Shown here: piece after piece, positions 35,490 to 64,000 of the stretch | Numbering within the stretch: the stretch's first letter is position 1 | Layout of the letters: each line of letters starts with the position of its first letter | Virus record (IMG/VR): IMGVR_UViG_3300017778_004456 | Coordinates: 1 to 64,000 of that record | From: a virus | Direction: 5' to 3' (one strand) | Length of the DNA: 64,000 bases | Notes under the pieces: model-generated | Databases searched by the model: none | What the model was told of the DNA's origin: nothing | Seen by the model: only the letters and a program-made list of their open reading frames with translations | Translations under genes and position numbers: made by a program

Positions 35490-35645
35490 CCGACCGCTGT
35501 GGCGTGGCGCGCGGTGCAGCTAACCCCGGCAGGCTTTAGCCCCGAAAACGCGTATGGGCGCTCGTAGGGCTCCTATGGGCATTCTGCGCCGCCCCTAGTA
35601 GGTTGCCAGCTTGCCCCACACTAATTGAGTAGGTTTCTCAGTATC

Positions 35646-37577
35646 ATGCAACACTTCCCCGATGGGACCACCGCGTTCCAGCAGATTATCCATCAGTCCA
35701 AGTACGCGAGGTTCCTTCACGATAAGGGTCGCCGGGAGTTCTGGCCGGAGACCGTGGATCGCGTCGTGAATTTCTACAAGCAGCACGTCACGGATGAGCT
35801 TCACGTGGAGATCCCCGATTCCAAGTGGGAAGAGATCCGCAAGGCCATCTGGAACATGGACGTGTTCCCTTCGATGCGCGCAATGATGACGGCCGGACCT
35901 GCGCTGGCGAAAGACAACGTCGCAGCCTTCAACTGCTCGTACATCCCAATCCGTGACACCCGCTCGTACGCCGAGATGATGTACATCCTGATGTGCGGAA
36001 CCGGAGTCGGCTACACGGTGGAACGCCAGGACGTCAAGAACCTGCCCGAGGTCCCGGCTGAGCTGACCAAGCGCGGCGACATCTGCATCGAGGTTCAGGA
36101 CTCCAAGATCGGCTGGGCGGATTCGCTCATGAAACTCCTGGATCACCTCTACATGGGATACATCCCGCTGTGGGATACCATGAAGCTTCGTCCGAAGGGT
36201 GCCATCCTGAAGACGTTCGGCGGCAGGGCTTCTGGACCCGGTCCCCTGGAAGATCTCTTCCGCTTCATCGTTGAATCTTTCAAGAACGCTCAGGGTCGCC
36301 GGCTCACGTCTCTGGAATGCCACGACATCGCCTGCAAGGTTGCGGACGCAGTAGTCAGCGGCGGCGTTCGCCGTTCTGCTCTCATCTGCCTGTCCAACTT
36401 GTCTGACAATCGTATGCGCGACGCCAAGGTTGGCGAGTTCTGGCTCAACAATCCCCAGCGGTCAAACGCCAACAACTCGGCGGCCTATACGGAGAAGCCC
36501 GAAGTTTCGCACTTCATGCAAGAGTGGTTGTCGATCTTCCAGTCCGGCACCGGCGAGCGCGGCATTTTCAATCGTGAGGGTGCCAAGAAGAAAGTTCGCA
36601 GTCTCCCCGGTCGTGATGCCAACCATGAGTTCGGAACGAATCCTTGCGGCGAGATCATCCTCCGCCCGTACGAGTTCTGCAACTTGTGTGAGATCGTTGT
36701 CCGACCCTGGGACACGTTGGAGTCGCTCAGCAAGAAGGTGGAGATCGCCACCATCCTCGGGACGATTCAGTCGACGTTCACCAACTTCCGGTTCATTCGT
36801 CCTGAGTGGAAGAAGAACTGCGATGAGGAGCGGCTTCTGGGAATCGGTCTCACCGGTATCTTCGATCATGCCGTTCTCTCTACCGTGTGCGACGATGCCA
36901 AGGTCTGGCTCACCCAGCTTCGGAACAAAGCGCGTCACGTCAACGGCAAGTACGCTCGCAAGTTCAACATCAACTCCTCGGTCGCTATCACGTGCATCAA
37001 GCCGTCGGGTACCGCGTCGAAGCTCGCCAAGTGTCCCAGCGGGATTCATCCCCAGCGCGGTCAATACGTGACGATTCGCATCCGGTCTGACAACAAGGAT
37101 CCGATGACGCAGTTCCTCAAAGACCAAGGCGTATACTGGGAGCCTGAGGTCGGCAAGGAAGAGACGATGACCGTCTTTAGCTTTCCGGAGGCGGCTGCGC
37201 CGGGAGCGGCAACCGAAGAGACTCTCAAAGCTCGGGATCACTTCCAGCTCATCCAGATGTACAATCTGTACTGGGCGGATCACAATACGAGCTGCACTAT
37301 CAAGCTCGCTGATCACGAGTGGCCGGGTGTCGGCGCTGACGTCTGGGATAACTGGGACAACATTACGGGGATGGCGTTCCTCCCTCGTAGCGGCGGGTCC
37401 TACATCCAAGCTCCTCAGGAGATCGTCGACAAGCAAACGCATGACGAACTCCTGTCGATCACGCCGACTTCGATCAACTGGAACAACCTCGAACTCTACG
37501 AGAAGGGTGAAGATCACGTCAAGTCTGCGAAAGATCTTGCCTGTGTCGCCGGGGCGTGTGTGCTAGCCGAGATCTAG
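35646..37577 (+). CDS. nrdJ: class II (B12-dependent) ribonucleotide reductase
   Basis: PSMRAM, FNCSY, GGVRRSA, GTNPCGEI, CIKPSGT, C-terminal CVAGAC; no small subunit gene nearby. Confidence 0.92.
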   Translation: MQHFPDGTTAFQQIIHQSKYARFLHDKGRREFWPETVDRVVNFYKQHVTDELHVEIPDSKWEEIRKAIWNMDVFPSMRAMMTAGPALAKDNVAAFNCSYIPIRDTRSYAEMMYILMCGTGVGYTVERQDVKNLPEVPAELTKRGDICIEVQDSKIGWADSLMKLLDHLYMGYIPLWDTMKLRPKGAILKTFGGRASGPGPLEDLFRFIVESFKNAQGRRLTSLECHDIACKVADAVVSGGVRRSALICLSNLSDNRMRDAKVGEFWLNNPQRSNANNSAAYTEKPEVSHFMQEWLSIFQSGTGERGIFNREGAKKKVRSLPGRDANHEFGTNPCGEIILRPYEFCNLCEIVVRPWDTLESLSKKVEIATILGTIQSTFTNFRFIRPEWKKNCDEERLLGIGLTGIFDHAVLSTVCDDAKVWLTQLRNKARHVNGKYARKFNINSSVAITCIKPSGTASKLAKCPSGIHPQRGQYVTIRIRSDNKDPMTQFLKDQGVYWEPEVGKEETMTVFSFPEAAAPGAATEETLKARDHFQLIQMYNLYWADHNTSCTIKLADHEWPGVGADVWDNWDNITGMAFLPRSGGSYIQAPQEIVDKQTHDELLSITPTSINWNNLELYEKGEDHVKSAKDLACVAGACVLAEI

Positions 37578-37594
37578 TACAGAGACTTTTCATG

Positions 37595-37646
37595 TCTGGC
37601 AGGTTAGATGTATTAGTGATAATTCATCTAACCTGCCAGAGTTTTT
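37595..37646 (+). terminator. intrinsic terminator after nrdJ
   Basis: 16 bp perfect stem TCTGGCAGGTTAGATG/CATCTAACCTGCCAGA followed by GTTTTT. Confidence 0.7.
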
Positions 37647-37648
37647 CT

Positions 37649-38044
37649 ATGACCGATCTCACGAAGTTTGAGACTCTGATCTTAGAAAGGATGGACTCAC
37701 AGGTTGAGTTTTTATCCAATCTGAAGGATTCATTGTCAGGTTTTGACAAACGACTAGCTGTCCTCGAAAGTCGAACAGAGAATCTTGTAAACATGAACGA
37801 GCGAGTCCATAAACTCGAACTTCAGTTGACCGAGATTAAAGCTGATTTTAGAGTTGGTCAGTTGGACAGAACTAAGATTGAAGAGTTTGCCAAGAGACTC
37901 GACAACCTCGAAAAGTCAGCAGGCGTGGACTCTGGAAAACGTAAGATCATCCTCGACATTGTCAAGTGGGCTATTCCATCAGCTGCGACGATAATTTCAA
38001 TTGCCGCCCTGCTGCTAGGGCTTGCCCGCGATGCCACAAATTGA
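37649..38044 (+). CDS. coiled-coil protein with C-terminal TM helix
   Basis: Heptad repeats followed by IVKWAIPSAATIISIAALLLGL. Confidence 0.65.
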   Translation: MTDLTKFETLILERMDSQVEFLSNLKDSLSGFDKRLAVLESRTENLVNMNERVHKLELQLTEIKADFRVGQLDRTKIEEFAKRLDNLEKSAGVDSGKRKIILDIVKWAIPSAATIISIAALLLGLARDATN

Positions 38045-38045
38045 G

Positions 38046-38083
38046 CAAAAGGAAGCCCGCCTAGCGGGTTTCGCTGGCGGGCC
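38046..38083. terminator. hairpin between convergent transcription units
   Basis: GCCCGCC...GGCGGGC stem preceded by an A-run, at the +/- convergence. Confidence 0.5.
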
Positions 38084-38138
38084 GGTAGGTGGGTGGCTTG
38101 GGTTATTTCCGCTTACCAGCGGGCGTCCTAGGCGTCTG

Positions 38139-38681
38139 TTACCAACGCCTCTTTCCATTGACCTCAGGTGCTGCGTCAGTTCTTCCTAGGACGTAGTCCG
38201 GCCTCCGTTGGGAGTTCGGAGGACAGATCGCCAGGATCACCCAGCCGTGATCTAGAGCTTCCTGAAGATCATCTGTACAAGCGTCTTCCATGACCTTCAC
38301 GAACTTGATACCCATGAGCGTGAAGTTCGCCATGTGAATTACGACGTCGGCGCCGTAGCGATATTTCTCACCTTCGTCGATGTCGCTTGCCTTGGTTCCG
38401 AGTGCCTTCGCGAGACCAGCGAGTCGGTCCTTCAGCTTGGTTTTCATTAAGTAGGGGTTCGCCGGCTCAATATTGATCTCGATGTTCGCGTCGAGGATTG
38501 CCAGGAGTCGCGTGTGGTCGACGATCACCTCTACCTGGAGATCGTATTCCCGAGTTGGTTTCTCCTCTGGAAGCTCTGGAAGAATCTTGCGAAGATCATC
38601 CCAGAGGCTGGGGTCTTCGGCTTTCCAGATCTTCCTGAGATCTCCTTTGCTTCCGTAGTAGTTAGTCGTGATCTTGAACAT
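38139..38681 (-). CDS. hypothetical protein
   Basis: 180 aa ORF with AAAGGA RBS; LDHGWVILAICP...RPDYVLGR. Confidence 0.7.
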   Translation of the reverse strand: MFKITTNYYGSKGDLRKIWKAEDPSLWDDLRKILPELPEEKPTREYDLQVEVIVDHTRLLAILDANIEINIEPANPYLMKTKLKDRLAGLAKALGTKASDIDEGEKYRYGADVVIHMANFTLMGIKFVKVMEDACTDDLQEALDHGWVILAICPPNSQRRPDYVLGRTDAAPEVNGKRRW

Positions 38682-38934
38682 AGTGTTCCTTTCCTGACTT
38701 CACCTCCAGTATAGAGTCGGCCGGAATGTTCCGGTACGCTCCGACCTGCATGTCATAGACCGTAACGAGTCCGTGGTCGGCCGGATCATACCTGGGATTC
38801 GGGTCTCTGGAGAGTCCCTTGTGAACGCCCATGCGACAAATCATCACGCGCTCCAGTCCGGTGGTTCGCTTGATGAAACGAACCTTAGCGATCTTGCCGC
38901 TCCGGAGCATCTTGTGGAGTTTCTCAATATTCAT
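38662..38934 (-). CDS. SH3-like beta-barrel (WYL_2/DUF2693-like) protein
   Basis: VRFIKRTTGLERVM...VYDMQVGAYRNIP pattern. Confidence 0.6.
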   Translation of the reverse strand: MNIEKLHKMLRSGKIAKVRFIKRTTGLERVMICRMGVHKGLSRDPNPRYDPADHGLVTVYDMQVGAYRNIPADSILEVKSGKEHYVQDHD

Positions 38935-39145
38935 TTAAGATCCCATCGCAGAAGAAGTGGACCCGAAGAGGCTTCAGCGCTTTCTCGTCCATATCTAGTT
39001 GGACGATGTATCGGTGCTTCTTCCCCTTTGGGATCAAATTGCTGCAGAAGTCACAGCGATGATTCTTACCAGCCACGGGAGTCGTGTCCCGAAGCGTGAG
39101 GATGTTCGGTCCCTCGTTCTCCCAGAATGGCCGGTAATCACGCAT
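38924..39145 (-). CDS. small zinc-finger protein
   Basis: HRCDFC..LIPKG...HFFC. Confidence 0.6.
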   Translation of the reverse strand: MRDYRPFWENEGPNILTLRDTTPVAGKNHRCDFCSNLIPKGKKHRYIVQLDMDEKALKPLRVHFFCDGILNEY

Positions 39146-39443: not shown

Positions 39444-39945
39444 TGGCTTCTTCCTTGATTGTGGACCATAGACCGTTTTCGTACCGGGCCGCGCCTGTGG
39501 CAGCTAACCACCGCACTAGAGCCCGCGTAAAGTTGCTACGGCTGCTCGGCGTGCATACGGCTAGGCAGGCCAGCGGGCGCATTTCGAGCAGCGCAGCCAT
39601 GCTCCTAGGCCTCCGAAGCCGTTCCAGAAGTTCCTCACGGGCGAGAGCGCCGTAGCGCTCCACGACGATTCGGTCAGACTTGGAGACGGACTCAGGAATT
39701 TCTACCGGGGCAAAGTCGCCAGGAAGTCGGTAGAATCGGCCGCACTTGGCGATCTTGCCTTGGCTCACGAGGACTGACAAGCAGCGATCTACGATGAGCA
39801 CTTTGGTGGACGGAGAGTAGGATTTATTCGCCCAGCGATCTCGTACCTTTTCGGAGGAGAAAGCGAGACGACCCATGCGGAGAGCAATTTTCTCGATCGT
39901 ACCGAGGTATGCTTCCGCCATCTTGTTTGCGGATGCTAGAGTCAT
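39433..39945 (-). CDS. hypothetical protein
   Basis: 170 aa ORF overlapping neighbours; AAGGA RBS. Confidence 0.6.
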   Translation of the reverse strand: MTLASANKMAEAYLGTIEKIALRMGRLAFSSEKVRDRWANKSYSPSTKVLIVDRCLSVLVSQGKIAKCGRFYRLPGDFAPVEIPESVSKSDRIVVERYGALAREELLERLRRPRSMAALLEMRPLACLAVCTPSSRSNFTRALVRWLAATGAARYENGLWSTIKEEANVI

Positions 39946-40175: not shown

Positions 40176-40287
40176 GACATAGCCCTTGGTTGCCATGCTA
40201 GGTTGTAACCTGCCCCAAGCCTCAATGCAACGGGCCGCATACTCTTGCGAATATGCGGCCCATCTCTTCAGCAACGAAGACTGTAGA

Positions 40288-40599: not shown

Positions 40600-40688
40600 G
40601 TTGGGTCCTTTCCTAGAAGATGATGTCAAGAACAATAATAACGCAGCAGAGCCAAATCACAAAGCTCATTAGTTTCCACATCGTAAAG

Positions 40689-42964: not shown

Positions 42965-42992
42965 CCGATAACCTTGCCTTTAACCTTCACAC

Positions 42993-43021: not shown

Positions 43022-43041
43022 GGCTTGCCGTGTCAGGAAGA

Positions 43042-43419: not shown

Positions 43420-43487
43420 AAGTGACCCCTAGCTGTGATGTATAAGTTAACCACAAGCTAACGGCGGTTTACGTCGCCGGCAAGGGG

Positions 43488-46015: not shown

Positions 46016-46214
46016 GATACTCAGACCTCTGGGTAGTGGCTCTCTGGAAGAGGGCCGCGTGAACGTAGTCATCGGGAAGAAGCAACTAGCGACGATTCCG
46101 GTGCACGACCTTCCAGAATTCTTAAGAGTCCTGGCCCGACAAGTCCCGTTCGGAGCATCTTTCATGAACTACATGCTGAAAGCAGCTGACGAAGCCGAGG
46201 CCAAGAATCGCTAA
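45960..46214 (+). CDS. small hypothetical protein (start uncertain)
   Basis: ORF filling the space between primase and terminator. Confidence 0.4.
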   Translation: MSTSTRKPAGTSSLAQPPEILRPLGSGSLEEGRVNVVIGKKQLATIPVHDLPEFLRVLARQVPFGASFMNYMLKAADEAEAKNR

Positions 46215-46264: not shown

Positions 46265-46430
46265 AGTCGCTTCACCGCCCGGTGAACTTGCGTGCTGGCA
46301 ACTGCCCGTAGAACCCACTTCAGGACGCCTAGCGCGGGCGTTACGCGCGTTCGGCTGTGCGGGCTAGGGGCTGCACTAGGGCAAGGCTGCACCCAAGGCG
46401 GGGCCAGCAGCAAGTCAAATTAGCCTGACG

Positions 46431-49268: not shown

Positions 49269-49273
49269 AGTCG

Positions 49274-50720: not shown

Positions 50721-51004
50721 CGAAAAGCCTCTGATAGGATGATTGCCATGAGTGTTGTAATTCCGAAGAACATGAGCGACAACACGAAAACGAGTTCGGC
50801 AGTCTCAGGATCGAGCTTCACGAGCGATATCCTTTCTCGGTTGGTAGACTTATTGCTTGGCTCACTATGTGCTCCCGCGTGCGGCGCGTGCCGCCCTACC
50901 TTGTACCCTACGGACACGCTGTAGAGCAAGCGTATAGCCCTCTAAAGCGCATCCTATAGGCCGTGCCAGCCGTGCCGCCCGGAGCATTTCCGAGCAGCCG
51001 CACC

Positions 51005-51235: not shown

Positions 51236-51462
51236 TGGTTGAGCCTCTTAAGGATTGATGCGTAGGTGACTTCCATTTTCGTGAAAGTCTTCTCCAGGTG
51301 CTTGACCCGAAGTTCGTGAGACTCGATCACGGCGAAGAGGGACTCCACGCCGTGACGAGCTGTTTTGTTCGTAGGGTCGATTCCCATCGCGACACACCAT
51401 CCGTGTGAACGGCGCTTTCTCGCTGCGGTACGACGCTTGACCTCTTTCGGGTCCTCGGTCAT
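51232..51462 (-). CDS. hypothetical protein
   Basis: ATGA overlaps on both sides. Confidence 0.6.
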   Translation of the reverse strand: MTEDPKEVKRRTAARKRRSHGWCVAMGIDPTNKTARHGVESLFAVIESHELRVKHLEKTFTKMEVTYASILKRLNQ

Positions 51463-51860
51463 GGCGCCAACCGTCCGGGCCAGTACTTCTGCAGACGTGC
51501 TACCGCCTCATCGAGATCGGCAAAGTGACGAACCATAGCTCCGTTCTTGCCGATGGTTGCGCGCTCAAACGTCCGGTAGCTGATGCCGTTGACCTTGTAG
51601 GGTCCGTCGCTCCATGCCTCGTTCAAGAAGACGAGATAGCTGCACTGTTCGGACTTCCACCACTCGCGGACGTGGGCGTGCTCACCCTTGCCACGAGTCT
51701 CGCTCATGAGGTCCCAGACGCTCATGACGTCCTGACCTTGCGGGTTCTTGGAAACCATCCTCCGGCGGGACGAACCCGTGCGAGGCTCAAACCAGAACCC
51801 CGGCTTCTGCGGATTGATGGGAAGGGGAAATTCTGTAGAGTAGTCCTGATTAGTTGTCAC
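51459..51860 (-). CDS. hypothetical protein
   Basis: GGAGG RBS before GTG at 51860. Confidence 0.6.
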   Translation of the reverse strand: MTTNQDYSTEFPLPINPQKPGFWFEPRTGSSRRRMVSKNPQGQDVMSVWDLMSETRGKGEHAHVREWWKSEQCSYLVFLNEAWSDGPYKVNGISYRTFERATIGKNGAMVRHFADLDEAVARLQKYWPGRLAP

Positions 51861-51893
51861 CTGAAACCTCCGGGTTGACCTGCGGCTACAAAT

Positions 51894-51933
51894 AAGGTAA
51901 GCCGTGCTTACGTCAAACGCAAGCACGGCTTAC
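51894..51933 (-). promoter_or_regulatory. promoter embedded in 13 bp inverted repeat
   Basis: TTGCGT-N17-TACCTT (51922-51894) overlapping GTAAGCCGTGCTT/AAGCACGGCTTAC. Confidence 0.65.
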
Positions 51934-51950
51934 TCGTCAGGACAACTTTG

Positions 51951-52394
51951 TTACGCTCTACGTCGATAGTCAGGCCCAAGCCCGTCAGTCCCTGGGGGGA
52001 CGGGGACGACTGGCAAGGTCGACTTGTCTTCGTAAGGAACAGTGTCCCGGGAAGCGGTATCCCAGAACAAGTGGTCCCAACCTTCACTTCGCTTAGGACG
52101 CGAAGTGAACTTGTGGTTCTCATTGGCAACAAGGATCACCTCGTAGTCGAGATCCTCGGTGCAGGCTCGAATATCCTCCACGACCTTGCGGCGCTCAGAA
52201 GCTGTATCAGCCTCCACGCACCACATGAAGGATTCACTCTTCAACATGAGAACAAACGGATCGAGATCGCGCTTGGCGTACTTCCAGTCGATCACACGCT
52301 TGGGCGTGTATCCAACGGGACATACTCGTGCGACGATATCGCGGACCGGCTCGAAGCCGATAGTAACGATGACGTATGGACGTTCGTGGTTCAC
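51951..52394 (-). CDS. degenerate P-loop kinase-like protein
   Basis: GGAGG RBS; aligns by eye with 53561..53983 and 52700..53284 but has no Walker A. Confidence 0.55.
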   Translation of the reverse strand: MNHERPYVIVTIGFEPVRDIVARVCPVGYTPKRVIDWKYAKRDLDPFVLMLKSESFMWCVEADTASERRKVVEDIRACTEDLDYEVILVANENHKFTSRPKRSEGWDHLFWDTASRDTVPYEDKSTLPVVPVPPGTDGLGPDYRRRA

Positions 52395-52493
52395 TTGAGA
52401 CCTCCTACTGCTACCACAAAAACAAGTTAACACAGCATTACGTCTTTGGGTGGGTCGTATGCTCAAATTAACCATCTTTTAGCAGTTGGACGA

Positions 52494-52712
52494 TCAAGCC
52501 TGTGGATCGCTGATCTCGACGGTGATCAAGACGAACTTGCCTCTGTACTTGAAGAGAGCCTTCGCCCGCTTGGAGTTCGATTCGGGAACGGTGATGTCTC
52601 CGACCTCGGCGTCAGGAGTTCGATCGCCGATTCCTCCGAGTGCCTGTTGGAGAAGCTGACGCGGTAGCCTCGGGTCTCGCATGGGGAGAAGGTTGTTGGT
52701 CATAGGTTCCAT
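52494..52712 (-). CDS. hypothetical protein
   Basis: Operon ORF. Confidence 0.55.
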   Translation of the reverse strand: MEPMTNNLLPMRDPRLPRQLLQQALGGIGDRTPDAEVGDITVPESNSKRAKALFKYRGKFVLITVEISDPQA

Positions 52713-53284
52713 CCGCTCTGGGTAGGAGTGTGGTCACGTAGAGTCTTGTGGAATTCTGGTAGCGGGATAAACGTCCGTTCGGAGAAGCCCTCCCAGACAG
52801 CGGGAAGCTCGAACTCGTCCACCATCGATTCCCAAACCTCTCGCTCGACTCCGTGACGATTCCGCTCGAAGACCTTATTTCGCTGAAACTTCGTCACCGG
52901 CGGAAAGAAGGCGACAGCCTCAACTCGGAAACCATACTCGTGAAGGAGTCTGATCATCGGTTCTCGGATACCGGTGTTGACGTTCACCTGATCCCAGACG
53001 AAATCCGTGCGATTCTCCAGTAGTACGTCGAGTTCGGCGCCTACGAGCATCTTAGCGTAGAAGTTGAGCTTCTCATCGTTAGTGACTTCTGTGAAGGAGG
53101 TGTTCATCCTTCTTGCTATGTCCTCGCAGATAGCATCGAGGCTGAGAACCTTGACGTTCGACGGGACGTGATGCTTGATCCAGGTGCTCTTTCCAGCACC
53201 CGGCACGCCGATCATCATCGTACATGTCGGCGGGAACATGAATCGCTTGAGTTTAGTCATAGTAGCCGAGATCGTTTTTGTCAT
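52700..53284 (-). CDS. P-loop kinase (AAA_33/polynucleotide kinase-like)
   Basis: MIGVPGAGKSTW, LSLD, VWDQVN...R, EGF. Confidence 0.85.
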   Translation of the reverse strand: MTKTISATMTKLKRFMFPPTCTMMIGVPGAGKSTWIKHHVPSNVKVLSLDAICEDIARRMNTSFTEVTNDEKLNFYAKMLVGAELDVLLENRTDFVWDQVNVNTGIREPMIRLLHEYGFRVEAVAFFPPVTKFQRNKVFERNRHGVEREVWESMVDEFELPAVWEGFSERTFIPLPEFHKTLRDHTPTQSGWNL

Positions 53285-56555: not shown

Positions 56556-56851
56556 TTCTTTCTCCCTATTGCAGTCAAATCATCACTAGCGCCGATGTAC
56601 ATGTAGGCTCCCTTATTGCATACCGGAGCCGAGGACCGAAGTTTACGCTCGATTTCGGCCCGTACTGTCCTCTTCTCAACGAGCATCGATTTGAGCAAGG
56701 GCTCTTTCTCCTGAACGAATACTACTCCTGCGAGATCGCTCGTGGGCGGCAGATTTGCGTCTGGGACGAAAGCCTCGGGAAGATTCCAGGACCTGCCGGG
56801 GAGAGGCTTGCGAGCCTTGACTCGAACATGCTTCTTACGTCGAAGAGTCAT
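56552..56851 (-). CDS. hypothetical protein
   Basis: APVCNKGAYMYI...IGRK C-terminal motif; GGAGAG RBS. Confidence 0.6.
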   Translation of the reverse strand: MTLRRKKHVRVKARKPLPGRSWNLPEAFVPDANLPPTSDLAGVVFVQEKEPLLKSMLVEKRTVRAEIERKLRSSAPVCNKGAYMYIGASDDLTAIGRKK

Positions 56852-57153
56852 ACGTCTCTCCCTGCGAAGTCAGCCGTGGCCGACTCCAGGCTGGTGTGAT
56901 AGGATCCCCACATCCACTCTCCGTGGGCGAGTGACTCGTCCGAGACCATGCAGACCACGAACGGGTGATAGGTGTTGTGCGGGATGTGAATCAATGCGTG
57001 TGAGAGTCCGGGTGCTTGGCCCTCGGACTGACGGATCCACTTACGATGTTTGATGTCTAGAGTACGAGGCACTGGAATCTCCGTGTGCTTGACGGCGTGG
57101 CTCGGCGATATTCCGCCGGATGCGGCGTGTGCTGCATTATAAAGGCATAGCAC
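56848..57153 (-). CDS. hypothetical protein (start uncertain)
   Basis: YHPFVV...EWMWGSYH..LESA..DF pattern. Confidence 0.5.
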   Translation of the reverse strand: MLCLYNAAHAASGGISPSHAVKHTEIPVPRTLDIKHRKWIRQSEGQAPGLSHALIHIPHNTYHPFVVCMVSDESLAHGEWMWGSYHTSLESATADFAGRDV

Positions 57154-57189
57154 GGGGCGGCGTTTTGAGCTAGGGTACGCTTAGTCCGC

Positions 57190-58300
57190 AAGCTCCTTGG
57201 AGGAGTCGTCTGGATAGGTAGATAAAAGGCGTCTGTATCTGGAGGTCATTCGTCAGATATCGACTGCGTCACTGGGAAGTACTTAGGTACTCGAGCGCGA
57301 TCCACAAGATAGACGCATTTCTGCGGATAGGAGAGATTAGGGACATGTGGAACGTAGAGAATTCGGTAGGAGTGAGGATAGCTCTGGATCTCGTCAACGA
57401 GGGAATCTAGCTCTAGGAGATTCCTCAAGTGAGGATTCCACCCGAAGCTGTGTCCACGCTCGAGAAGAATCCTTGGATCCACGGTGCGATGAGGGATTTT
57501 GGGATCCACGCAGAATAGCATCCTACCATATCCAGTCACGATATGATAGGAGAGGGAGATCTTGACCGGGAATCCCATGAAGATCATCACCCATGGAGGT
57601 GAAGATTGTGGGAGCGTCGCGGATAGAGCTTTGAGGGTGAAGCGAGGATTCATGCGGGCTAGGTTAGGCGGGATGCATGTGTCGTACAAGGTGAGGATTC
57701 TTCAGTAGGGACAGAAGGTCGTTACGGCGTGTCGGTACAAATCGCTGCGGTTGGCGTTGTTCCATGTACGAGTTTGGGTTTTCATTAAGTTTGGTCATAA
57801 CCTCGGTGGTTAAAGGTTGAAGTGTGTGTCTTTGTACAAATCGCTTTTGTGTTTGGAATAAATATATGAGCTATGTAGAAAGTTGTAGCGGAACTGTGGA
57901 ACATGATTATAGGTCACTGTGAGACTCGGGAAGGAGGGCGGTTCCGGTCTGTTCCATGGTTCCATGGTTTTCGGTTTTTGCCGGTTTATGGGTTCTACCA
58001 AACAGGAGCGAATGGTTTGTACCGGAAGAGGAATTATTCCTGTAATTCCAAGGCACTCAGTTGTGTTAGTGGACCGCTGGTCGTTGCGGTGGCGGAACAC
58101 GCTCACTTGTTCCGTGGCATTCTTGTACCAGATTCTCAGGAGTTTAAGACTCAGCGTAGGTCTGGAAGCCGGGAACGGGGCAAAATCAAGGAGATCGTCA
58201 ATCAAATTTTGACATTCCAACCACTGATGCCGGCGATCGGGTCCGTGTCAAAATCTCCCCAGCAGAGATTCGTCCACTCTTAAGAGTCGCTGGTCGGTCT
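57190..58300. other. non-coding region, candidate replication origin
   Basis: No convincing ORFs; strand-skewed composition; repeated GTTCC/GGAAC and GTACAAATCGCT; AT-rich core near 57855-57870. Confidence 0.4.
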
Positions 58301-58309
58301 CATACGGAA

Positions 58310-58337
58310 TCGGCCCAGGACTCGCATCCTGGGCCGA
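58310..58337 (-). terminator. hairpin
   Basis: TCGGCCCAGGA/TCCTGGGCCGA stem downstream of the stop at 58363. Confidence 0.55.
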
Positions 58338-58362
58338 CCCGACAGTATTGAATTGACGTGAA

Positions 58363-58701
58363 TTACATCTTCACTCGACGGAAGGCTGACCCGGATGGGG
58401 AGATCCGATACAGTCCCTGACCGTCGGCACAGATGACGTCGTACATATCCGTGTCATCCGTGTTCCGTTGGATTCGGACGCCCTCGGCCTCGTCTGGACG
58501 AATGAGCTGAATCGCCAACAGACCTGTGATCAGGTCCTCGTAGTCACCTCGAGCGATGGAGCCCGGACGAACGTCGATTCCGACACCCGACTGAGCCCAC
58601 GTCAGTTCTGGAAGATTCCAGATCGTGACGTACATCTTAGCGGTCGGCCTGATGGCGATGACCTCCGCTGACTTACCTGTTCTCTTCCGCATTGCCGACA
58701 C
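58363..58701 (-). CDS. hypothetical protein
   Basis: ORF downstream of minus promoter TTGCGC-N17-TACCGT (58770-58742). Confidence 0.6.
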   Translation of the reverse strand: MSAMRKRTGKSAEVIAIRPTAKMYVTIWNLPELTWAQSGVGIDVRPGSIARGDYEDLITGLLAIQLIRPDEAEGVRIQRNTDDTDMYDVICADGQGLYRISPSGSAFRRVKM

Positions 58702-58741
58702 TATGATCTCCGCGCTTGTGGACGCTGTTACTTATACCCTA

Positions 58742-58850
58742 ACGGTAAGCCATGATAACGCCCAGCGCAACAATCTTATGGTCTTCCAGTATCAACCTCC
58801 TCACGTGGACGACATAGCCTATTGCCTGGACGAACGTTTGCGCGTACATT
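58742..58850. promoter_or_regulatory. divergent promoter pair
   Basis: Minus TTGCGC-N17-TACCGT and plus TTGCCT-N17-TACATT (58822-58850). Confidence 0.6.
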
Positions 58851-58915
58851 ATGCTCATGGTTGGCGGCAAGCCCGTCCACCATCACAGCAACGAGTCCAC
58901 AAAGGAACTGAGACC

Positions 58916-59422
58916 ATGAACACCAAGACATCCACGTCCAAGCTGCCGATGGCCGCGACCGACAAGAAGACCGACGTCGCCGACCCGACTGCCAAGGCCC
59001 CCAAGACTCCGGGCGGCGTTGACATCTCGGCGGCGAAAGCCAAGGCATCCTCCAAGGATGCCGACGCTGCGAAGTTCGTAGGCAACTACACTCGCCTGAC
59101 GACCCTCGCGGCCCTGAGCTTCGACGCTCTGGCGGCTGAAGTCGGCGATGTGGGCGCGACGCCTGCGGAACTGGCCGACACCACGAAGTGGCTGGCCTCG
59201 GACGACGAGAAGCTTCTGACAGCCAACCGTTCGCCCATTCGCAACGCGATCATCGCCATCTGCCGAGCCAACCCCGGCGTTGAAGCCCGCGCGATCCACC
59301 TGATCATGCGAGCCACAGCCGGCGAGAGCTACCGCGGCTCGTACGACAAGGGCTACCTCTACGCGCCGAACTCCAAGACGCGCGGGATGGAAGCACGCGG
59401 CCTCGTTATCCGGCAGGCGTAA
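58916..59422 (+). CDS. putative DNA-binding protein, paralogue of 22779..23414
   Basis: AAAGGA RBS; shared ANPG...Y..GYL pattern; followed by a hairpin at 59451-59482. Confidence 0.7.
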   Translation: MNTKTSTSKLPMAATDKKTDVADPTAKAPKTPGGVDISAAKAKASSKDADAAKFVGNYTRLTTLAALSFDALAAEVGDVGATPAELADTTKWLASDDEKLLTANRSPIRNAIIAICRANPGVEARAIHLIMRATAGESYRGSYDKGYLYAPNSKTRGMEARGLVIRQA

Positions 59423-59521
59423 GTCGGCCAGGACGACAGGTAACTAGACGGAGGCGGACTGGGTGCAAGCTCAGTCCGCCTCTGACGAGAGGCTCTTAAG
59501 GAGTCTTAAGAATCCCAGATT

Positions 59522-59995
59522 ATGGAGAAGAGAATGAGCGAAGCAAGTCGAGAACTATTGAGCGAAACCTTGATGACGGCTGGGATAGACGGAAACACCG
59601 AGTGGTTCTACCCTCTGGTAACCGCCATCTCGACGGACCTAGAGACAGGCGAGGACCTGGAATCCCCGGAGCAGACTCCGATGATCACGGTCGACCTAAC
59701 GAGGGAGCACCTGGACTGGATTGTCAGGAATGTCGCAGTCCAATGGGAGGGCCGAGACCCACAGAGTCTGTGGGTCGGGGAGAGTGAGCTGTTCGTTCGG
59801 GAGACTCTGTGGTCGAAGCGATTCGCCTACGTCGTGCTCCAGGACGTGAAGGGCGGATTCATCTGCTGGGTCTGGCAGAGCGACCGAGCCGGAGTCTTAA
59901 GAATCGCCAGCCCTCACCTGTCTGTTCCAGCGGGAGTCCTGGAGAGTGAGTCGATTCGAGTTCTGGAGCTTCTCCAGTCCCGGGCCAACTCCTGA
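59522..59995 (+). CDS. hypothetical protein
   Basis: ORF followed by a hairpin at 60026-60064. Confidence 0.6.
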   Translation: MEKRMSEASRELLSETLMTAGIDGNTEWFYPLVTAISTDLETGEDLESPEQTPMITVDLTREHLDWIVRNVAVQWEGRDPQSLWVGESELFVRETLWSKRFAYVVLQDVKGGFICWVWQSDRAGVLRIASPHLSVPAGVLESESIRVLELLQSRANS

Positions 59996-60087
59996 CCACA
60001 CTGGCGACACAGCGTAGGGGCGCACTCCAGGGCGGGTAGGCTGGGCCAGCACACCCGCCCTGGATGCTGCGTAGAGTAAGCGTAGGC

Positions 60088-60116
60088 TTGCCTGACGAGG
60101 TTCACGCGCGTACCTT
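60088..60116 (+). promoter_or_regulatory. sigma70-like promoter
   Basis: TTGCCT-N17-TACCTT. Confidence 0.6.
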
Positions 60117-60147
60117 GTAGGGGCTGGCAACGGGCCAGCGTCAGGTT

Positions 60148-60363
60148 ATGGAGACAGAAGTGACCGTTGAAGAACTAGGAATCCAGGTTGACAAGATGAA
60201 GGTGAAAGCCTTCGACCTGATGAAGAACTCCGAGCACGTGAATCCTCAGCACGCCGGGTACGAGACCTACGCCGACCTCTGTGCGGCGACAGTCAAGGCG
60301 ACCCAGAAGGTGATCATCAAGTTGATCACCGACTGGGAACGCAAGAACCCGATGGAGGACTAG
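60148..60363 (+). CDS. hypothetical protein
   Basis: Small ORF downstream of promoter. Confidence 0.6.
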   Translation: METEVTVEELGIQVDKMKVKAFDLMKNSEHVNPQHAGYETYADLCAATVKATQKVIIKLITDWERKNPMED

Positions 60364-60684
60364 ATGAGCAATTTATCATGGATGAAGCAATCACAACTCG
60401 GGCTGTTCGAGCTATCACTCGCACAGCTCGGACTCGAAATGATGCCGATCGACGAGGACGAGAGCGAGGCATACTACGAGACGATCTACAAGTGTCGTCA
60501 GTTAGTCAACAGGTGCCGACCGAGTCTGTCACTCATGCTCCGAGTCGGCGTCGAGGTATCGTATGTTGATGTCTGGCGAATGCAGATCGAGGAGAGCGAC
60601 GAGTATCTCGTGCGATTCTGGACGAGCAAAGGCCCGGATTTTGACGAGGCCGAGTTCCACCTAGCGCAGGAGATTGCTGAGTGA
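60364..60684 (+). CDS. acidic hypothetical protein
   Basis: GGAGG RBS. Confidence 0.6.
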   Translation: MSNLSWMKQSQLGLFELSLAQLGLEMMPIDEDESEAYYETIYKCRQLVNRCRPSLSLMLRVGVEVSYVDVWRMQIEESDEYLVRFWTSKGPDFDEAEFHLAQEIAE

Positions 60685-60869
60685 TCTACGCAGTCTACGA
60701 CCGAGCGGAACGGAGGACTCTCGCCAAGAAATCCGACCGGAAGGAGGATCTCAAAGGGCTGAGAGACAACCTGGAGAGACTCCACGCGACGATGGACGTT
60801 CCACGAGACCGGGACGGCATTCCTCTGGACGAGAATAGACGCAGGTTTGTTATCCGGCCGATGCAGTAA
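60681..60869 (+). CDS. hypothetical protein
   Basis: AGGAG RBS; GTGA overlap. Confidence 0.55.
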   Translation: MIYAVYDRAERRTLAKKSDRKEDLKGLRDNLERLHATMDVPRDRDGIPLDENRRRFVIRPMQ

Positions 60870-60872
60870 CAC

Positions 60873-60901
60873 TTGCCAGACGACCCGGCTTGGCGCATAT
60901 T
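60873..60901 (+). promoter_or_regulatory. sigma70-like promoter
   Basis: TTGCCA-N17-CATATT. Confidence 0.55.
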
Positions 60902-60909
60902 GCATGTAC

Positions 60910-61028
60910 GCGCTGGGTGACCCGGTTCTTACCGGACAATCTGCCCAGTTGGCCTGATCTCGGGCCATCATGCAAGCCTCAAACCAGAGGCAGAGGTCTG
61001 AGTCGGGGCAGTCATCCCCGACACTCAT
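60910..61028 (+). ncRNA. candidate structured RNA/leader
   Basis: Four consecutive stem-loops directly downstream of a promoter, with no substantial ORF. Confidence 0.3.
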
Positions 61029-61040
61029 GGAGTACCTGAA

Positions 61041-61187
61041 GTGAGAAATCATTGGAACAACTGGGGCCGGGAGATCACCGGCTGGGGATTGATCCTGGTC
61101 ATCGTGTGCACGGGATCGTGGTTCGGAGCCGAGGTTGGCGCGAACTACATCCGCGCGCTGATCGACGGCGGACAGTGGGGGAAATAG
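61041..61187 (+). CDS. 48 aa single-TM membrane peptide (not in ORF track)
   Basis: GGAG RBS, GTG start; MRNHWNNWGREITGWGLILVIVCTGSWFGAEVGANYIRALIDGGQWGK. Confidence 0.55.
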   Translation: MRNHWNNWGREITGWGLILVIVCTGSWFGAEVGANYIRALIDGGQWGK

Positions 61188-61189
61188 TC

Positions 61190-61555
61190 ATGTTGAGCAA
61201 AGAACTCAAGCACAAGATCCGCAGAGCGTGGGCTCGCAAAGCCTGGGAGGACGGTCCCACGGACACTCTGGCCCTCAAGCAGGAGATCCGCGACCTGATG
61301 GATGTCCTGGCTGTGGACGGGAAGGTCGGCCTCGTCATCTGGCAGATGGACTGCGATTGTGCGTCCTGGACCAGCCTGATGGTGATCGAGAACTCGCTGG
61401 TTGACTACAACCGGGCGATCACCGGCGTCTACTCCAATGCGGAGGGACCGGTCCGGATCCACTTGGCGAGCCCAGACACCGAGGTCCAGCGCAACGAGCG
61501 GGACCACGCTCTGGAGGCCCACGAAGACGGACACCCCTACTCCGTCTCGTACTGA
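61190..61555 (+). CDS. conserved phage hypothetical protein
   Basis: MDCDC, NAEGP, RDHALEAHEDGHP motifs. Confidence 0.65.
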   Translation: MLSKELKHKIRRAWARKAWEDGPTDTLALKQEIRDLMDVLAVDGKVGLVIWQMDCDCASWTSLMVIENSLVDYNRAITGVYSNAEGPVRIHLASPDTEVQRNERDHALEAHEDGHPYSVSY

Positions 61556-61559
61556 GATT

Positions 61560-61702
61560 AGAGCGGCGAGGAGACAGCTTCTCGCCGCTCTGGTCTATAG
61601 GTCAGTCTGGGACTCTTAAGAATCGCAGAGGACTCTTAAGAATCGCGGTGTGGTCTGTGGGATGCTAAGATGCTTGCATGACGCGCGTGCTTGTGGCATG
61701 TT
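61560..61702 (+). repeat. terminator-operator-promoter cassette, copy 1
   Basis: GCGGCGAGGAG..CTTCTCGCCGC hairpin, GACTCTTAAGAATC twice, TTGCAT-N17-CATGTT. Confidence 0.75.
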
Positions 61703-61742
61703 GCAAGTACGCCGCAGTTGGCGTGTCAAGGGACCTATCCAC

Positions 61743-61925
61743 ATGATAAGTCGCATCCGCATAATCACTCCCGAGGGCCGAGTCCACGTGGTTGATCAGA
61801 GCTGGTCTCAGCTCTGCCAGACGATCCGTCCTCTCTCAGACGAGGACAAGAAGGAGTTCTGGAACAAGAAGTCCATGCCTCTGCCCGAGGGCGGAAGCGT
61901 GAAGCTGGTCCTGGAGGGCGTGTGA
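61743..61925 (+). CDS. hypothetical protein
   Basis: AAGGGA RBS. Confidence 0.55.
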   Translation: MISRIRIITPEGRVHVVDQSWSQLCQTIRPLSDEDKKEFWNKKSMPLPEGGSVKLVLEGV

Positions 61926-62194
61926 TGTACGACATGATTCACACGTTCAACACCGGCCGGAAATACACGGTCCACGGTCAGCGCATCATCGCGAAGTCTC
62001 GTACTGATGGACGAGGTCCGATCCTGTTCAACGATCTGGACCGCATGATCTACGGTTCTCTGGACCGAGAACCTCCGGAGGGATGGGCAAGTCTCACCGA
62101 GAAGGAGCGTCAGAGCTACATCCTGCACGAGTACGACTGCGGATACTACCGCTGGCACCAGGATGCTGACGCCCTGAGGAAAGAGTGGCAGTAG
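61925..62194 (+). CDS. conserved phage hypothetical protein
   Basis: FNTGRKYTVHGQRI...F.DLDRMIYG. Confidence 0.65.
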   Translation: MYDMIHTFNTGRKYTVHGQRIIAKSRTDGRGPILFNDLDRMIYGSLDREPPEGWASLTEKERQSYILHEYDCGYYRWHQDADALRKEWQ

Positions 62195-62199
62195 ATCTC

Positions 62200-62337
62200 A
62201 CCGGCGAGGAGATGACTTCTCGCCGGTTGGGTCTATTCGTCTGTCTGGGACTCTTAAGAATCGCAGCGAGTATGTTGGGATGCTACCTACCCTTGCATGA
62301 TACGCGTGCTTGGCGTACCTTGTAAGGGTAGGTAGCA
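62200..62337 (+). repeat. terminator-operator-promoter cassette, copy 2
   Basis: CCGGCGAGGAG..CTTCTCGCCGG hairpin, GACTCTTAAGAATC, TTGCAT-N17-TACCTT. Confidence 0.75.
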
Positions 62338-62350
62338 AAGGAGAATCTAC

Positions 62351-62635
62351 ATGGGATTTCAATCAGGCGCGAAACATCAGCGATCCGCGGTCCGAGCAGC
62401 TCTGGAGGACCTGATGAAGGTCAACTGTGCCAGACTCGCCGAGGACCAGGACTTCCCTGAGCGGGAGCTCTTCGAGAACAGCGACCAGGACAACGAAGGC
62501 TGGGAGAAAGTCATCGACATCCAAGTCGAGTGGGAGACGGCCCGGATCTGGGAGCACTCTGAAGACAACAGACTCATTGTCGTCCTGTCTGACGGCGGAA
62601 ACGAGGATGATTACGAGGTTTGGGAAGTAGCCTAG
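62351..62635 (+). CDS. acidic hypothetical protein
   Basis: AAGGAG RBS; very Asp/Glu-rich. Confidence 0.7.
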   Translation: MGFQSGAKHQRSAVRAALEDLMKVNCARLAEDQDFPERELFENSDQDNEGWEKVIDIQVEWETARIWEHSEDNRLIVVLSDGGNEDDYEVWEVA

Positions 62636-62762
62636 ACAACGGGGAACGGAGGCAAGACAGATAGGGAGCGGAGGCGAGACAAGGCCTCCGCTTCCGCTCA
62701 ACTTGGATGCAAGGACTCTTAAGAATCACAGCATGGTCATTTTGACCACATGATACTTGCAA

Positions 62763-62790
62763 TTGACAGCCTGACCGGCTATGGTATAGT
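62763..62790 (+). promoter_or_regulatory. sigma70-like promoter
   Basis: TTGACA-N16-TATAGT, with an operator-like motif at 62714-62727 upstream. Confidence 0.6.
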
Positions 62791-62824
62791 GTGGCTGGGG
62801 TCGTCCCAGAGTCCACAGTGCAAG

Positions 62825-63229
62825 ATGGAGCTGAAGTCTATGCTGAACATTATGACTCTTGAGCGTCCTGTGATCCAGGGCCCCTCAGGTGCTGAGACCC
62901 CGAGAATCGCTGAGGAAGCCCAGTCCACGGACTATGACTGGCTTCCACGGTGTTCCACGCCGATCCGCGTGGTTCCGCGGATGCCCAAAACGATCCGCAC
63001 CATCGGATACGCTTCCAGGCAATACGAGGTTTCCGCAGGCGTGGAAGAAATCGTGAAGAAGGCCGGAGGGATGTGGACCTACATGAACGGAAAGTACTTC
63101 CCGAGCAAGGGCCGCACGAAGCAGAACGAGGCGAACCTGGTCAAGGCCGGTCTCATCGCGGTGTGTAGCGACCGGAGCAAAAAGGTGGTGTTGATGCTCG
63201 AAAAAGAGCTCAAGACGCTGCTCGGGTAG
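62825..63229 (+). CDS. hypothetical protein (start uncertain)
   Basis: ORF downstream of promoter. Confidence 0.55.
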   Translation: MELKSMLNIMTLERPVIQGPSGAETPRIAEEAQSTDYDWLPRCSTPIRVVPRMPKTIRTIGYASRQYEVSAGVEEIVKKAGGMWTYMNGKYFPSKGRTKQNEANLVKAGLIAVCSDRSKKVVLMLEKELKTLLG

Positions 63230-63315
63230 TGGTCATTTAACTATCAGGCGTGTAAGCTGGGGCAGGCAAGGCGTTGGTCTTGTCTGCCCTTACGCATGGA
63301 GAGAACGAAGTGCAA

Positions 63316-63630
63316 ATGGATATCGATGAACTGGTCGGTGCTGACCCGAACACTTGGCGTCTAGCCGACCGGAATCTGGCACGTGAGGTCAAGTTTCCGG
63401 AAGTGGGAGTGGTATTCCTGTCTGGTAAGCCGGGTGCGAAACTGGTTCCACGGGAGTGTAAGTCGCTGAAGCCGATGGGTGCTTCGGCTATGCGGCACGG
63501 AAACCTGACGTGCTGCTACGTTGAGTACGAGGAACTGAGGGATGGGATGTGGTATCGTCACATTCATGGGCATTGGGCGACCTTGGATGGTCACCGTGTC
63601 CGTCAGTGTTGGTTAGTCGCCGCGAAGTAG
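63316..63630 (+). CDS. hypothetical protein
   Basis: ORF followed by an 11 bp hairpin at 63645-63672. Confidence 0.55.
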   Translation: MDIDELVGADPNTWRLADRNLAREVKFPEVGVVFLSGKPGAKLVPRECKSLKPMGASAMRHGNLTCCYVEYEELRDGMWYRHIHGHWATLDGHRVRQCWLVAAK

Positions 63631-63814
63631 CGGAGGGTAATCCCGACCCGGTCAGTGAATGCTGACCGGGTCTCCCCGGCCGAAAGATGTTGACTCTTAA
63701 GAGTCTGGCCTAGATCTCCCCCGCGGAGAGATGATCAGTCTTAAGAGTCCACGGCAGACTCTTAAGATTCCCCGGGTCTCCCTCGCGGCGATTTGGATTC
63801 CTGGATGCCCTACC

Positions 63815-63892
63815 CGGCACGGTACGTACCGTTTTACCTAGGCGGCACGGTACGTACCGTTTTACCTAGGCGGCACGGTACGTACCGTGCCG
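63815..63892. repeat. 28 bp tandem repeat ending in a perfect 22 bp palindrome
   Basis: CGGCACGGTACGTACCGTTTTACCTAGG at 63815 and 63843; CGGCACGGTACGTACCGTGCCG at 63871-63892. Confidence 0.9.
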
Positions 63893-64000
63893 TATGGGCT
63901 ACCCTAGGGGCAACCTGCCTGCGGCATAATGCCGCACCCCGGTTCCGTGGCATGGTTTGTGGCAATGCATGTACCGTGCCAAGCGCCGCCCGCCTACCTG

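Follow-up and report, generated by a model that had tools for sequence, protein, structure and literature searches.

What could remove a single dinucleotide from both strands of nearly a kilobase of phage DNA, in a genome otherwise rich in it? The question is raised by the IMG/VR virus record IMGVR_UViG_3300017778_004456, a linear sequence of 75,995 nt without end repeats (completeness estimate 75%) from a siphovirus-like phage. Positions 1-64000 of this record are the stretch analysed here (the window, 64,000 nt), and positions beyond 64000 refer to the rest of the record. A preliminary description of the window had pointed to islands lacking TC and its complement GA (hereafter TC/GA), and had proposed that they mark places kept free of a hypermodification of T in 5'-TC-3'. 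The observation is confirmed and extends beyond what was reported at that time. The largest island (the main island) covers positions 63806-64726, 921 nt in all, and was cut by the window end at 64000. In the reading that we favour, with a probability of about 45%, the phage places its own thymine modification at TC and the islands stay unmarked.

The main island contained one TC and no GA, whereas its base composition would predict 105.8 TC/GA (log10 P about -47). The TC/GA gaps were 140 nt long (63804-63944) and, directly afterwards, 782 nt long (63944-64726). The edges were sharp, with 38 TC/GA in the 200 nt of the left flank (63606-63805) and 34 in the 200 nt of the right flank (64727-64926). 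Inside, the other 14 dinucleotides were all within about twofold of expectation, the C after T being replaced by A, G or T. The specificity held in the whole record, as the preliminary description had anticipated for a profile of all dinucleotides: among ten strand-symmetric dinucleotide classes GA/TC was the sole outlier, with longest free runs of 782 and 140 nt where a maximum of 52 was expected under a geometric model, whereas the longest free run in each of the nine remaining classes was at most 1.4 times its expected maximum. The depletion also persisted under Markov and codon controls (dinucleotide-preserving shuffles and a codon-aware simulation). Three explanations were considered and dropped: a deaminase-type mutation footprint at TC, because the islands are GC-rich and not TT/AA-rich; the avoidance of GATC, GANTC or other palindromic sites, which would not remove every TC/GA; and an adenine modification of the Mom type, the context of which is SAS (PMC13219725; here and below, statements cited by PMC number refer to the accessible portions of these articles).

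One whole unit was purged on both strands, comprising repeats, a promoter-like site, an open reading frame (ORF) and terminator-like sites. The left flank and the unit are organized as follows.

63692-63770: three copies of a 14-nt palindrome, GANTC-TTAA-GANTC, in the TC/GA-rich left flank
63809-63892: three tandem 28-nt repeats, with a palindrome in each
63914-63939: a 26-nt repeat with an internal hairpin, and its second copy (88% identical) at 63993-64018, spanning the window end
Between the repeats and the ORF: a promoter-like site, TTGCAA-17-CATGTT (two hexamers 17 nt apart)
64123-64596: an open frame of 157 codons, starting with MQKQ
After the open frame: two terminator-like sites, each a hairpin followed by a T-run

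The third copy of the 28-nt repeat contains a perfect 20-nt palindrome (63872-63891), a fourth copy of which (80% identical) was found at 63961-63980. These repeats are likely binding sites of a dimeric protein. The segment 63806-63945 also folded more stably than expected (z=-5.0). A sigma-70 consensus scan of the main island returned no promoter, and an Rfam scan of it just two sub-threshold matches, both on the terminator hairpins. At its right end the island stops 23 nt short of a convergent minus-strand gene.

The sequence is listed for 18 runs, all available as assembled (Logan) contigs and none of them from RNA; the metagenomes were freshwater, riverine or unlabelled. Parts of the main island were also overlapped by contigs of three other runs, belonging to three studies, and one of these contigs (64320-65027) crossed its right edge into the flank; the island is therefore not an artefact of a single assembly. 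A contig of another run, aligned at record 63757-64066, showed no differing letters and 28 gapped letters. This gap equals one repeat unit, so that the copy number of the 28-nt repeat varies between strains. The loose end of a diverged contig at the main island was devoid of TC/GA, over 30 letters only.

The open frame followed the same rule as the DNA around it. It contains no TC/GA, compared to 37.4±4.3 predicted from its own amino acids and the codon usage of the genome (minimum 23 in 2000 simulations). The predicted product has neither Asp nor Glu, which together make up 12% of the residues genome-wide, and 29% of it is Ala. Two predicted proteins from other samples were 93-95% identical to it and likewise lacked Asp and Glu; the differences lay mainly in the N-terminal third, and the length differed by one residue. 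No Pfam or PHROG family was matched, and no relative was found among viral_contigs and metagenome_contigs. The Atlas model was of low confidence (predicted local distance difference test, pLDDT, 0.36) and gave no usable look-alike. The length of the frame was reached in 12% of simulated TGA-free islands (P=0.12) and is not significant. With no family and a low-confidence model in addition, we do not claim this ORF as a gene.

Outside the main island the depletion takes the form of short islands, which were mostly intergenic. The preliminary description rested on hand counts in seven segments, and a recount reproduced all of them: one TC/GA in 63806-64000, 31 in the adjacent 63661-63805 (previously given as about 30), 4 in 35494-35626, 7 in 38001-38140, 1 in 46326-46413, 4 in 50881-50980 and 8 in 60001-60145. 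Its other descriptive statements were equally accurate. The islands are GC-rich (GC 0.63-0.72, compared to 0.55 in the window), the depletion is strand-symmetric, TC and GA both being gone from one strand, and the window as a whole is rich in the two dinucleotides, with observed/expected (o/e) ratios of 1.38 for TC and 1.33 for GA. The 11 dips that had been placed at predicted promoters all corresponded to TC/GA-free runs of 25-48 nt, starting at positions 21792, 27302, 40176, 42987, 43437, 51877, 57119, 58721, 61680, 62299 and 63244.

The excess of such runs was evaluated in the non-coding DNA outside the main island (41 segments, 5357 nt). Seventeen TC/GA-free runs of at least 35 nt were observed, compared to 5.4±1.9 in dinucleotide-preserving shuffles, none of 300 reaching 17. 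For the nine other classes the observed run count was reached by 52 to 300 of the 300 shuffles, and there was no excess. Since palindromes extend the free runs of every symmetric class, this comparison between classes also covers the contribution of hairpins. With a second, independent and rough gene call, 20 non-coding runs were found against 11.4 expected (0 of 200 shuffles reached 20). In terms of rho*(GA/TC), the pooled non-coding DNA had a value of 0.96, compared to 1.38 for coding DNA, which indicates that the non-coding DNA mixes TC/GA-free elements with TC/GA-rich ones. TC/GA-free runs of 31-51 nt were also seen inside genes, at 4347-4474, 6953-7004, 29837-29878 and 39479-39584 (tape measure, exonuclease and a small minus-strand gene), and their number was within chance for coding DNA. 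The short islands are listed below.

21792-21838, plus strand: TC/GA-free run of 46 nt, upstream of a Pam3 gp34-like gene
27302-27342, plus strand: run of 40 nt forming a hairpin with a 14-bp stem, between the DUF3310 and PolA genes (folding z=-5.9 for 27295-27350)
35492-35627: runs of 52 and 44 nt, between the large terminase and ribonucleotide reductase genes (no unusual folding at 35494-35626, z=+0.9)
38071-38108: run of 37 nt in a hairpin-rich stretch between convergent genes (folding z=-2.0)
40176-40222: intergenic run of 46 nt
43437-43474, minus strand: run of 37 nt with the promoter-like core TTGCCG-17-TAGCTT
46284-46415: TC/GA-poor, GC-rich stretch with runs of 27, 27 and 64 nt, between the convergent primase (plus strand) and endolysin (minus strand) genes (no unusual folding at 46326-46413, z=+0.4)
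50873-50913 and 50952-50982: two runs in a 284-nt intergenic region that contains the TACCTTGTA element (folding z=-2.3)
51877-51913, minus strand: run of 36 nt with the promoter-like core TTGCGT-17-TACCTT
52403-52443, minus strand: intergenic run of 40 nt, upstream of the minus-strand gene 51951-52394
57119-57167, minus strand: intergenic run of 48 nt, upstream of the minus-strand gene 56848-57072
60026-60141, plus strand: two runs, a hairpin past the gene end 59995 (60026-60063) and a promoter-like core with TACCTT (60102-60141); folding z=-3.3 for 60001-60145
60882-60919, plus strand: run of 37 nt with the promoter-like core TTGCCA-17-CATATT
61680-61726, plus strand: run of 46 nt with the promoter-like core TTGCAT-17-CATGTT
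62299-62341, plus strand: run of 42 nt with the promoter-like core TTGCAT-17-TACCTT, immediately upstream of the gene at 62351

In line with the suggested link to regulatory sites, the depletion fell on promoter-like cores, hairpins and repeat arrays. The promoter-like cores share a pattern composed of cTTGCn, 17 nt, then TAcCTT, CATATT or CATGTT, and then G. The trinucleotide GAC often follows the first hexamer directly; afterwards no TC/GA is met until well beyond the second hexamer. The spacers vary from one promoter to another, so that these sites are not copies of one sequence. A regular expression built on the pattern gave 13 matches. Six of them lay in or beside non-coding DNA, at most 145 nt upstream of a same-strand gene or of the island ORF, and all six (43460, 60111, 60896, 61697, 62316 and 64071) were within TC/GA-free runs of at least 37 nt. 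Five matches were wholly intragenic and appeared TC/GA-rich by eye (uncounted), and the two others were mixed. The test is partly circular, because the motif was taken from the TC/GA-free runs themselves.

The position of the spacers bears on a rule acting on RNA, under which transcripts would avoid UC and GA owing to a ribonuclease or to an effect on translation. Terminator hairpins, leaders and one whole ORF are indeed affected. The purge nevertheless extends to the promoter spacers, which are not transcribed, and to the repeat array that precedes the promoter. An explanation by RNA would, in addition, call for two separate rules, one against UC and one against GA, whereas a single rule for DNA suffices. 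We regard an RNA rule as highly improbable. The loss of both TC and GA, together with the purging of untranscribed spacers, points to a constraint on duplex DNA, and not on RNA or protein.

Could the main island and the short islands be two unrelated things? The former would be a compositional oddity, foreign or new low-complexity DNA derived from repeats and possibly non-coding, and the latter simply conserved promoters and hairpins. The properties of the ORF given above (length, family, fold and 29% Ala) fit this view, as do the several repeat families in the island and an excess of short islands that is just about threefold. No known process, however, gives rise to complex sequence from which a single dinucleotide is missing on both strands over 921 nt, with the other 14 within about twofold of expectation, and GA/TC is the sole class in excess as free runs elsewhere. 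The promoter spacers differ, yet all are without TC/GA; palindromes would extend the runs of all ten classes, and only GA/TC responds. A coincidence of this kind appears very unlikely to us.

Allowing one mismatch at most, the 14-nt palindrome GANTC-TTAA-GANTC occurs 11 times in the window, compared to 0.16 expected, and none of 100 shuffles reached 11. One copy is at 46117-46130 and the ten others are located at 58-64 kb (58275-63770), mostly behind a hairpin and 40-60 nt upstream of TC/GA-free promoter cores. The palindrome is probably the operator of a phage regulator. With four TC steps per site, it would be heavily marked under a modification placed at TC.

The genes behave differently from the regulatory DNA: TC/GA is purged from the latter and actively enriched in the former, beyond the levels found in relatives. 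In 63 confident genes, TC+GA amounted to 9254, compared to 8363±33 after permutation of synonymous codons within each gene (z=27). The coding excess sits at codon junctions (TC o/e of 1.67 at positions 3-1) and in the preference for NGA over NGG codons. The junction effect was compared across phages on a second gene set, with the following values for GA/TC.

Phage of the record: +10.6% (z 27)
PhiJL001: +3.8% (z 10.2)
YuA: +3.1% (z 6.8)
MW202897: +3.1% (z 6.5)
iggy: -11% (z -18)
CAjan: -4.7% (z -6)

It had been suggested that the phage maximises TC to shield its DNA. Coding TC/GA does exceed the needs of codons and proteins; a maximisation of TC for the sake of shielding was not established.

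The same enrichment weighs on the idea that TC is read by something foreign to the modification of the phage, such as a host defence system or nuclease, or a phage nuclease. The purged DNA would be that which works while exposed, for example the DNA first entering the cell or first expressed, and the phage's own modification would play no part. The main island does have small orphan genes as neighbours, as is typical of early regions (the proteins of two neighbouring sets of ten had a PHROG family in 0 and 4 cases), and phages carrying the same modification cluster have no islands. Nuclease targets are normally avoided genome-wide, however, while the genes of this phage contain more TC/GA than their codons call for, and the promoter cores are purged throughout the 76-kb record and not at one end only. 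Furthermore, the record yielded no enzyme specific for bare TC in duplex DNA. Such an outside reader seems unlikely.

A candidate for the reader is encoded by the phage itself, where five coupled genes at 23481-27270 specify an HMUDK_hel protein, a TAGT-like glycosyltransferase, a thymidylate-synthase (TS) homologue, an HD hydrolase and a DUF3310 protein.

23481-24356, plus strand: HMUDK_hel-domain protein, homologue of M6 gp55 (Pfam PF18723, E=2e-30; 27% identity to gp55, E=5e-27)
24353-25207, plus strand: TAGT-like DNA glycosyltransferase (PF20691, 33.5 bits for a cut-off of 27.5; phrog_842, E=1e-31)
25204-26262, plus strand: TS homologue (PF00303, E=3e-18; phrog_5131, E=1e-93; 38% identity to M6 gp58 over 351 aa)
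26255-27270, plus strand: HD-domain hydrolase and DUF3310 protein, homologues of M6 gp59 and gp61

A cluster of a kinase and a glycosyltransferase had been announced at this place. The glycosyltransferase is there, and it resembles the hydroxymethylcytosine glucosyltransferases of T-even phages. The assignment of 23481-24356 to a kinase was weakened, as the protein matches the helical-domain family HMUDK_hel and M6 gp55, with no match to gp54 or gp51. Pfam names this family "5-hmdU DNA kinase, helical domain", and in M6 gp55 adjoins the P-loop kinase gp54. According to the accessible text of Lee 2021 (PMC8989533), M6 gp55 was dispensable in the reconstitution of the pathway and no function was assigned to it. 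Standing here beside a glycosyltransferase and without a gp54-like kinase, the gp55-like protein might be a DNA-binding or targeting partner and not a kinase. The glycosyltransferase gene overlaps the start of the TS-like gene, a pairing also found in PhiJL001 and MW202897, and the TS homologue is likely a dUMP hydroxymethylase supplying 5-hydroxymethyl-dUTP (5-hmdUTP). From these homologies, glycosylated 5-hydroxymethyl-uracil would be the most economical prediction for the modified base.

We propose that something acting on double-stranded DNA reads 5'-TC-3' on either strand, and that the phage strips TC wherever proteins must work on its DNA. The places concerned would be the promoter cores, from just past the -35 element to beyond the start site, the hairpins, the repeat and operator arrays and the 0.9-kb unit. 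The most likely reader would be the thymine modification of the phage itself, and we infer its chemistry and its TC context, as well as its effect on proteins, from the gene content and from the placement of the islands. In this model the TS-like enzyme would cause all T to be laid down as 5-hydroxymethyl-dU (5-hmdU). Only T followed by C, which is about 37% of all T, would afterwards receive a bulky group from a context-dependent enzyme, most likely the TAGT-like glycosyltransferase, perhaps together with the gp55-like protein. The genes would be densely marked, whereas TC-free DNA would carry no bulky mark and would be readable by RNA polymerase, regulators and proteins of replication or packaging. 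A context-dependent conversion is in line with published work: in thymidine-hypermodifying phages 5-hmdU becomes, depending on the context, a hypermodified base or T (PMC8989533), and the conversion takes place in sequence-specific contexts and affects part of the T only (Lee 2018, PMC5889632; Lee 2021, PMC8989533). The accessible part of Lee 2018 (PMC5889632) described the motifs as "not yet known", and a preference for TG/TC was deduced from restriction resistance in M6, ViI and phiW-14 (Flodman 2019, PMC6449724). As to the effect on transcription, bacterial RNA polymerase is turned off in vitro when the 5hmU of its template is phosphorylated (PMC6457204).

The sequence evidence would be the same if the map were inverted, TC being the sole context in which 5-hmdU is not hypermodified but kept or reverted to T. 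The islands would then be fully modified and the genes partly not, and the context-wise conversion to the hypermodified base or to T, just quoted from PMC8989533, is compatible with this. On the other side, enzymes that need a given neighbouring base are commoner in the literature consulted (NTC for 5mYOX97, GA for the DpdA of phage iggy), and proteins would have to recognise promoters and operators that are fully marked with bulky groups. We consider the inverse map improbable, and less likely than a modification placed at TC.

Several results weigh against this modification at TC. The first concerns the enzymes, as neither the P-loop kinase gp54 nor the aGPT-Pplase2 transferase gp51 of M6 had a match at E<=1 in the 76-kb record (estimated 75% complete). 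The second concerns the strength of the pattern: across the whole record, runs of at least 33 nt numbered 28, compared to 31.6 expected under a homogeneous model, and the effect of the short islands is moderate. They are notable, then, for their non-coding placement and their specificity for a single dinucleotide, and not for their length. The third concerns the relatives. YuA and M6, which have thymidine-modification genes (50 kb each), showed no island for any dinucleotide, and neither did PhiJL001 and MW202897, although these two share the cluster of glycosyltransferase and TS. High o/e values of TC/GA (1.2-1.34) are common to the island-free YuA, M6, PhiJL001 and MW202897. Iggy and CAjan, in which a GA-directed modification has been mapped, deplete the motif in their genes; the longest runs of iggy are partly coding low-complexity repeats (at least one of three intragenic ones), and CAjan (mapped GA and GGC modification, 50 kb) has no islands, so that a context-specific modification does not in general entail the purging of its motif. 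The negative phages with the same cluster and the missing kinase and transferase are among the reasons for keeping our estimate below one half.

The comparison involved six phages: YuA and M6 (50 kb each), PhiJL001 (63.6 kb), MW202897 (40 kb), iggy and CAjan (50 kb). The longest GA/TC-free run, divided by the expected maximum, was 15 for the record, compared to 0.71 for YuA, 0.85 for M6, 0.74 for PhiJL001 and 1.33 for MW202897. Repeating the scan in phages with the same cluster, as had been advised, thus gave a negative result in PhiJL001 and MW202897, whose GA/TC o/e values were 1.34 and 1.22. None of the six comparators had an excess of GA/TC-free runs in non-coding DNA. Non-coding DNA showed an excess of CA/TG-free runs in YuA, M6 and iggy, which was set aside as a probable artefact of the ORF-free definition, start codons containing TG. 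In the Pseudomonas phage iggy (MN029011), GA/TC was the most depleted dinucleotide of non-coding DNA (rho* of 0.56, compared to 0.81 in coding DNA). Its longest GA/TC-free runs were twice as long as the maximum expected; of the top six, three were intergenic and three inside genes. The intergenic ones measured 152, 108 and 95 nt, near 60.1, 3.2 and 60.4 kb, respectively. No mention of these features was found in PMC10484667. In PhiJL001, a segment of 1351 nt without TA was seen inside the tape-measure gene at 51408-52759 (expected maximum 506; genome TA o/e 0.37).

The islands lie in a genome with the following layout.

0.3-17 kb: tail genes
19-37.5 kb: replication and nucleotide-metabolism block (helicase, Pam3 gp33/gp34-like, PolA, exonuclease, Dda-like helicase, large terminase, ribonucleotide reductase)
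38-57 kb: numerous small genes, minus strand
58.6-63.6 kb: small orphan genes, plus strand

The large terminase gene (34032-35489) is unusually placed within the replication and nucleotide block, and some 33 kb separate it from the portal gene (record 68538-70103). An AAA_33 P-loop kinase gene was also seen at 52700-53284 on the minus strand, and its nearest phage matches are polynucleotide-kinase-like genes. Several of the AAA_33 matches come from phages that infect Alphaproteobacteria (Caulobacter, Sinorhizobium, Ochrobactrum, Phaeobacter), which hints weakly at the group to which the host belongs. The closest named phages were the YuA/M6/PaMx11 group and the Bordetella phage CN1, with an identity of just ~38% for PolA. 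A megablast search of the primase gene against named phages and a pattern search for PolA relatives gave no match. A search for relatives with the gp55-like protein led to jumbo-phage loci only (28-30% identity), and the two of these that were scanned had no GA/TC outlier. A search with the 17-nt core of the repeat returned one contig, unrelated and without similarity to the record.

A broader proposal can be attached to a modification at TC, and we advance it tentatively, as possible but rather doubtful. TC would be a genome-wide switch, with glycosyl-hydroxymethyluracil at TC, TC-rich protected genes, TC-free windows for the proteins that read DNA, and one immediate-early or origin-like unit whose protein lacks Asp and Glu because of a rule set at the DNA level. 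If this were true, a DNA-level rule could strip two amino acids from a protein, and both the context of a DNA-modifying enzyme and the regulatory map of a phage could be read from the sequence alone. Motif-free islands, if they are the unmodified places, would reveal in which context the enzyme acts and where promoters and operators lie, and would offer candidates for the region read first or for the origin or packaging site. Finding modification contexts otherwise requires purified virions and special sequencing, which are out of reach for uncultured phages. Even with another reader of TC, the presence of a single TC/GA in a unit of 921 nt is in itself a very strong signal of selection, for which no published explanation was found. 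The preliminary description knew of no account of the phenomenon. This stands insofar as the literature, in its accessible portions, yielded no paper on motif-free islands and nothing relevant on motif-free or motif-depleted regulatory DNA in modified phages (supplementary files may hold motif maps); contexts of the TC type, for their part, have been published (PMC6449724, PMC13229309).

The closest known system is the hypermodification of M6, ViI, phiW-14 and SP10. The TS-like enzyme, the HD hydrolase, the DUF3310 protein, PolA and the dCMP deaminase are found here in the M6 order, whereas a glycosyltransferase takes the place of gp54/gp51, and M6 and YuA are without dinucleotide-free islands. 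A preference for NTC is also shown by 5mYOX97, a phage T-dioxygenase from a ParB-independent clade that is often tied to glycosyltransferases (PMC13229309, 2026). It resembles the enzyme predicted here in marking T before C on a pathway toward glycosylated bases, but the record has no Tet/JBP gene (no match to Tet_JBP dioxygenase, PF12851, at E<=1), and the source of hydroxymethyluracil would be the nucleotide pool, supplied by the TS homologue. Recognition of the context would consequently fall to a later enzyme. In phage iggy, DpdA makes a dPreQ0 modification with a strict GA motif (PMC10484667). The DpdA systems of iggy and CAjan are similar in that the mapped target is the same GA/TC step, and in iggy the depletion is strongest in non-coding DNA and at codon junctions. 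They differ in that the record has no DpdA (no match to DpdA/TGT, PF01702, at E<=1, where the control search matched 14 of 14 genomes) and is enriched for the motif in genes, iggy and CAjan being motif-depleted there too. The 7-deazaguanine modification of CAjan has reportedly been mapped to GA and GGC.

Phages are also known to avoid recognition sites, restriction words of 4-8 nt being lost from their genomes and from the first-entering DNA of T5 and T7. There as here, short words are lost locally or globally under the selection exerted by an enzyme that reads DNA. In the present case, by contrast, a bare dinucleotide is purged from promoter cores and one unit, and is enriched in genes. Base J (glucosyl-hydroxymethyluracil) of kinetoplastids, made by the JBP dioxygenases, marks termination regions and is tied to the control of transcription. 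It offers the example of a glycosylated hydroxymethyluracil placed at particular sites, and the phage described here would follow the reverse logic, its regulatory DNA being the part of the genome that is free of the mark.

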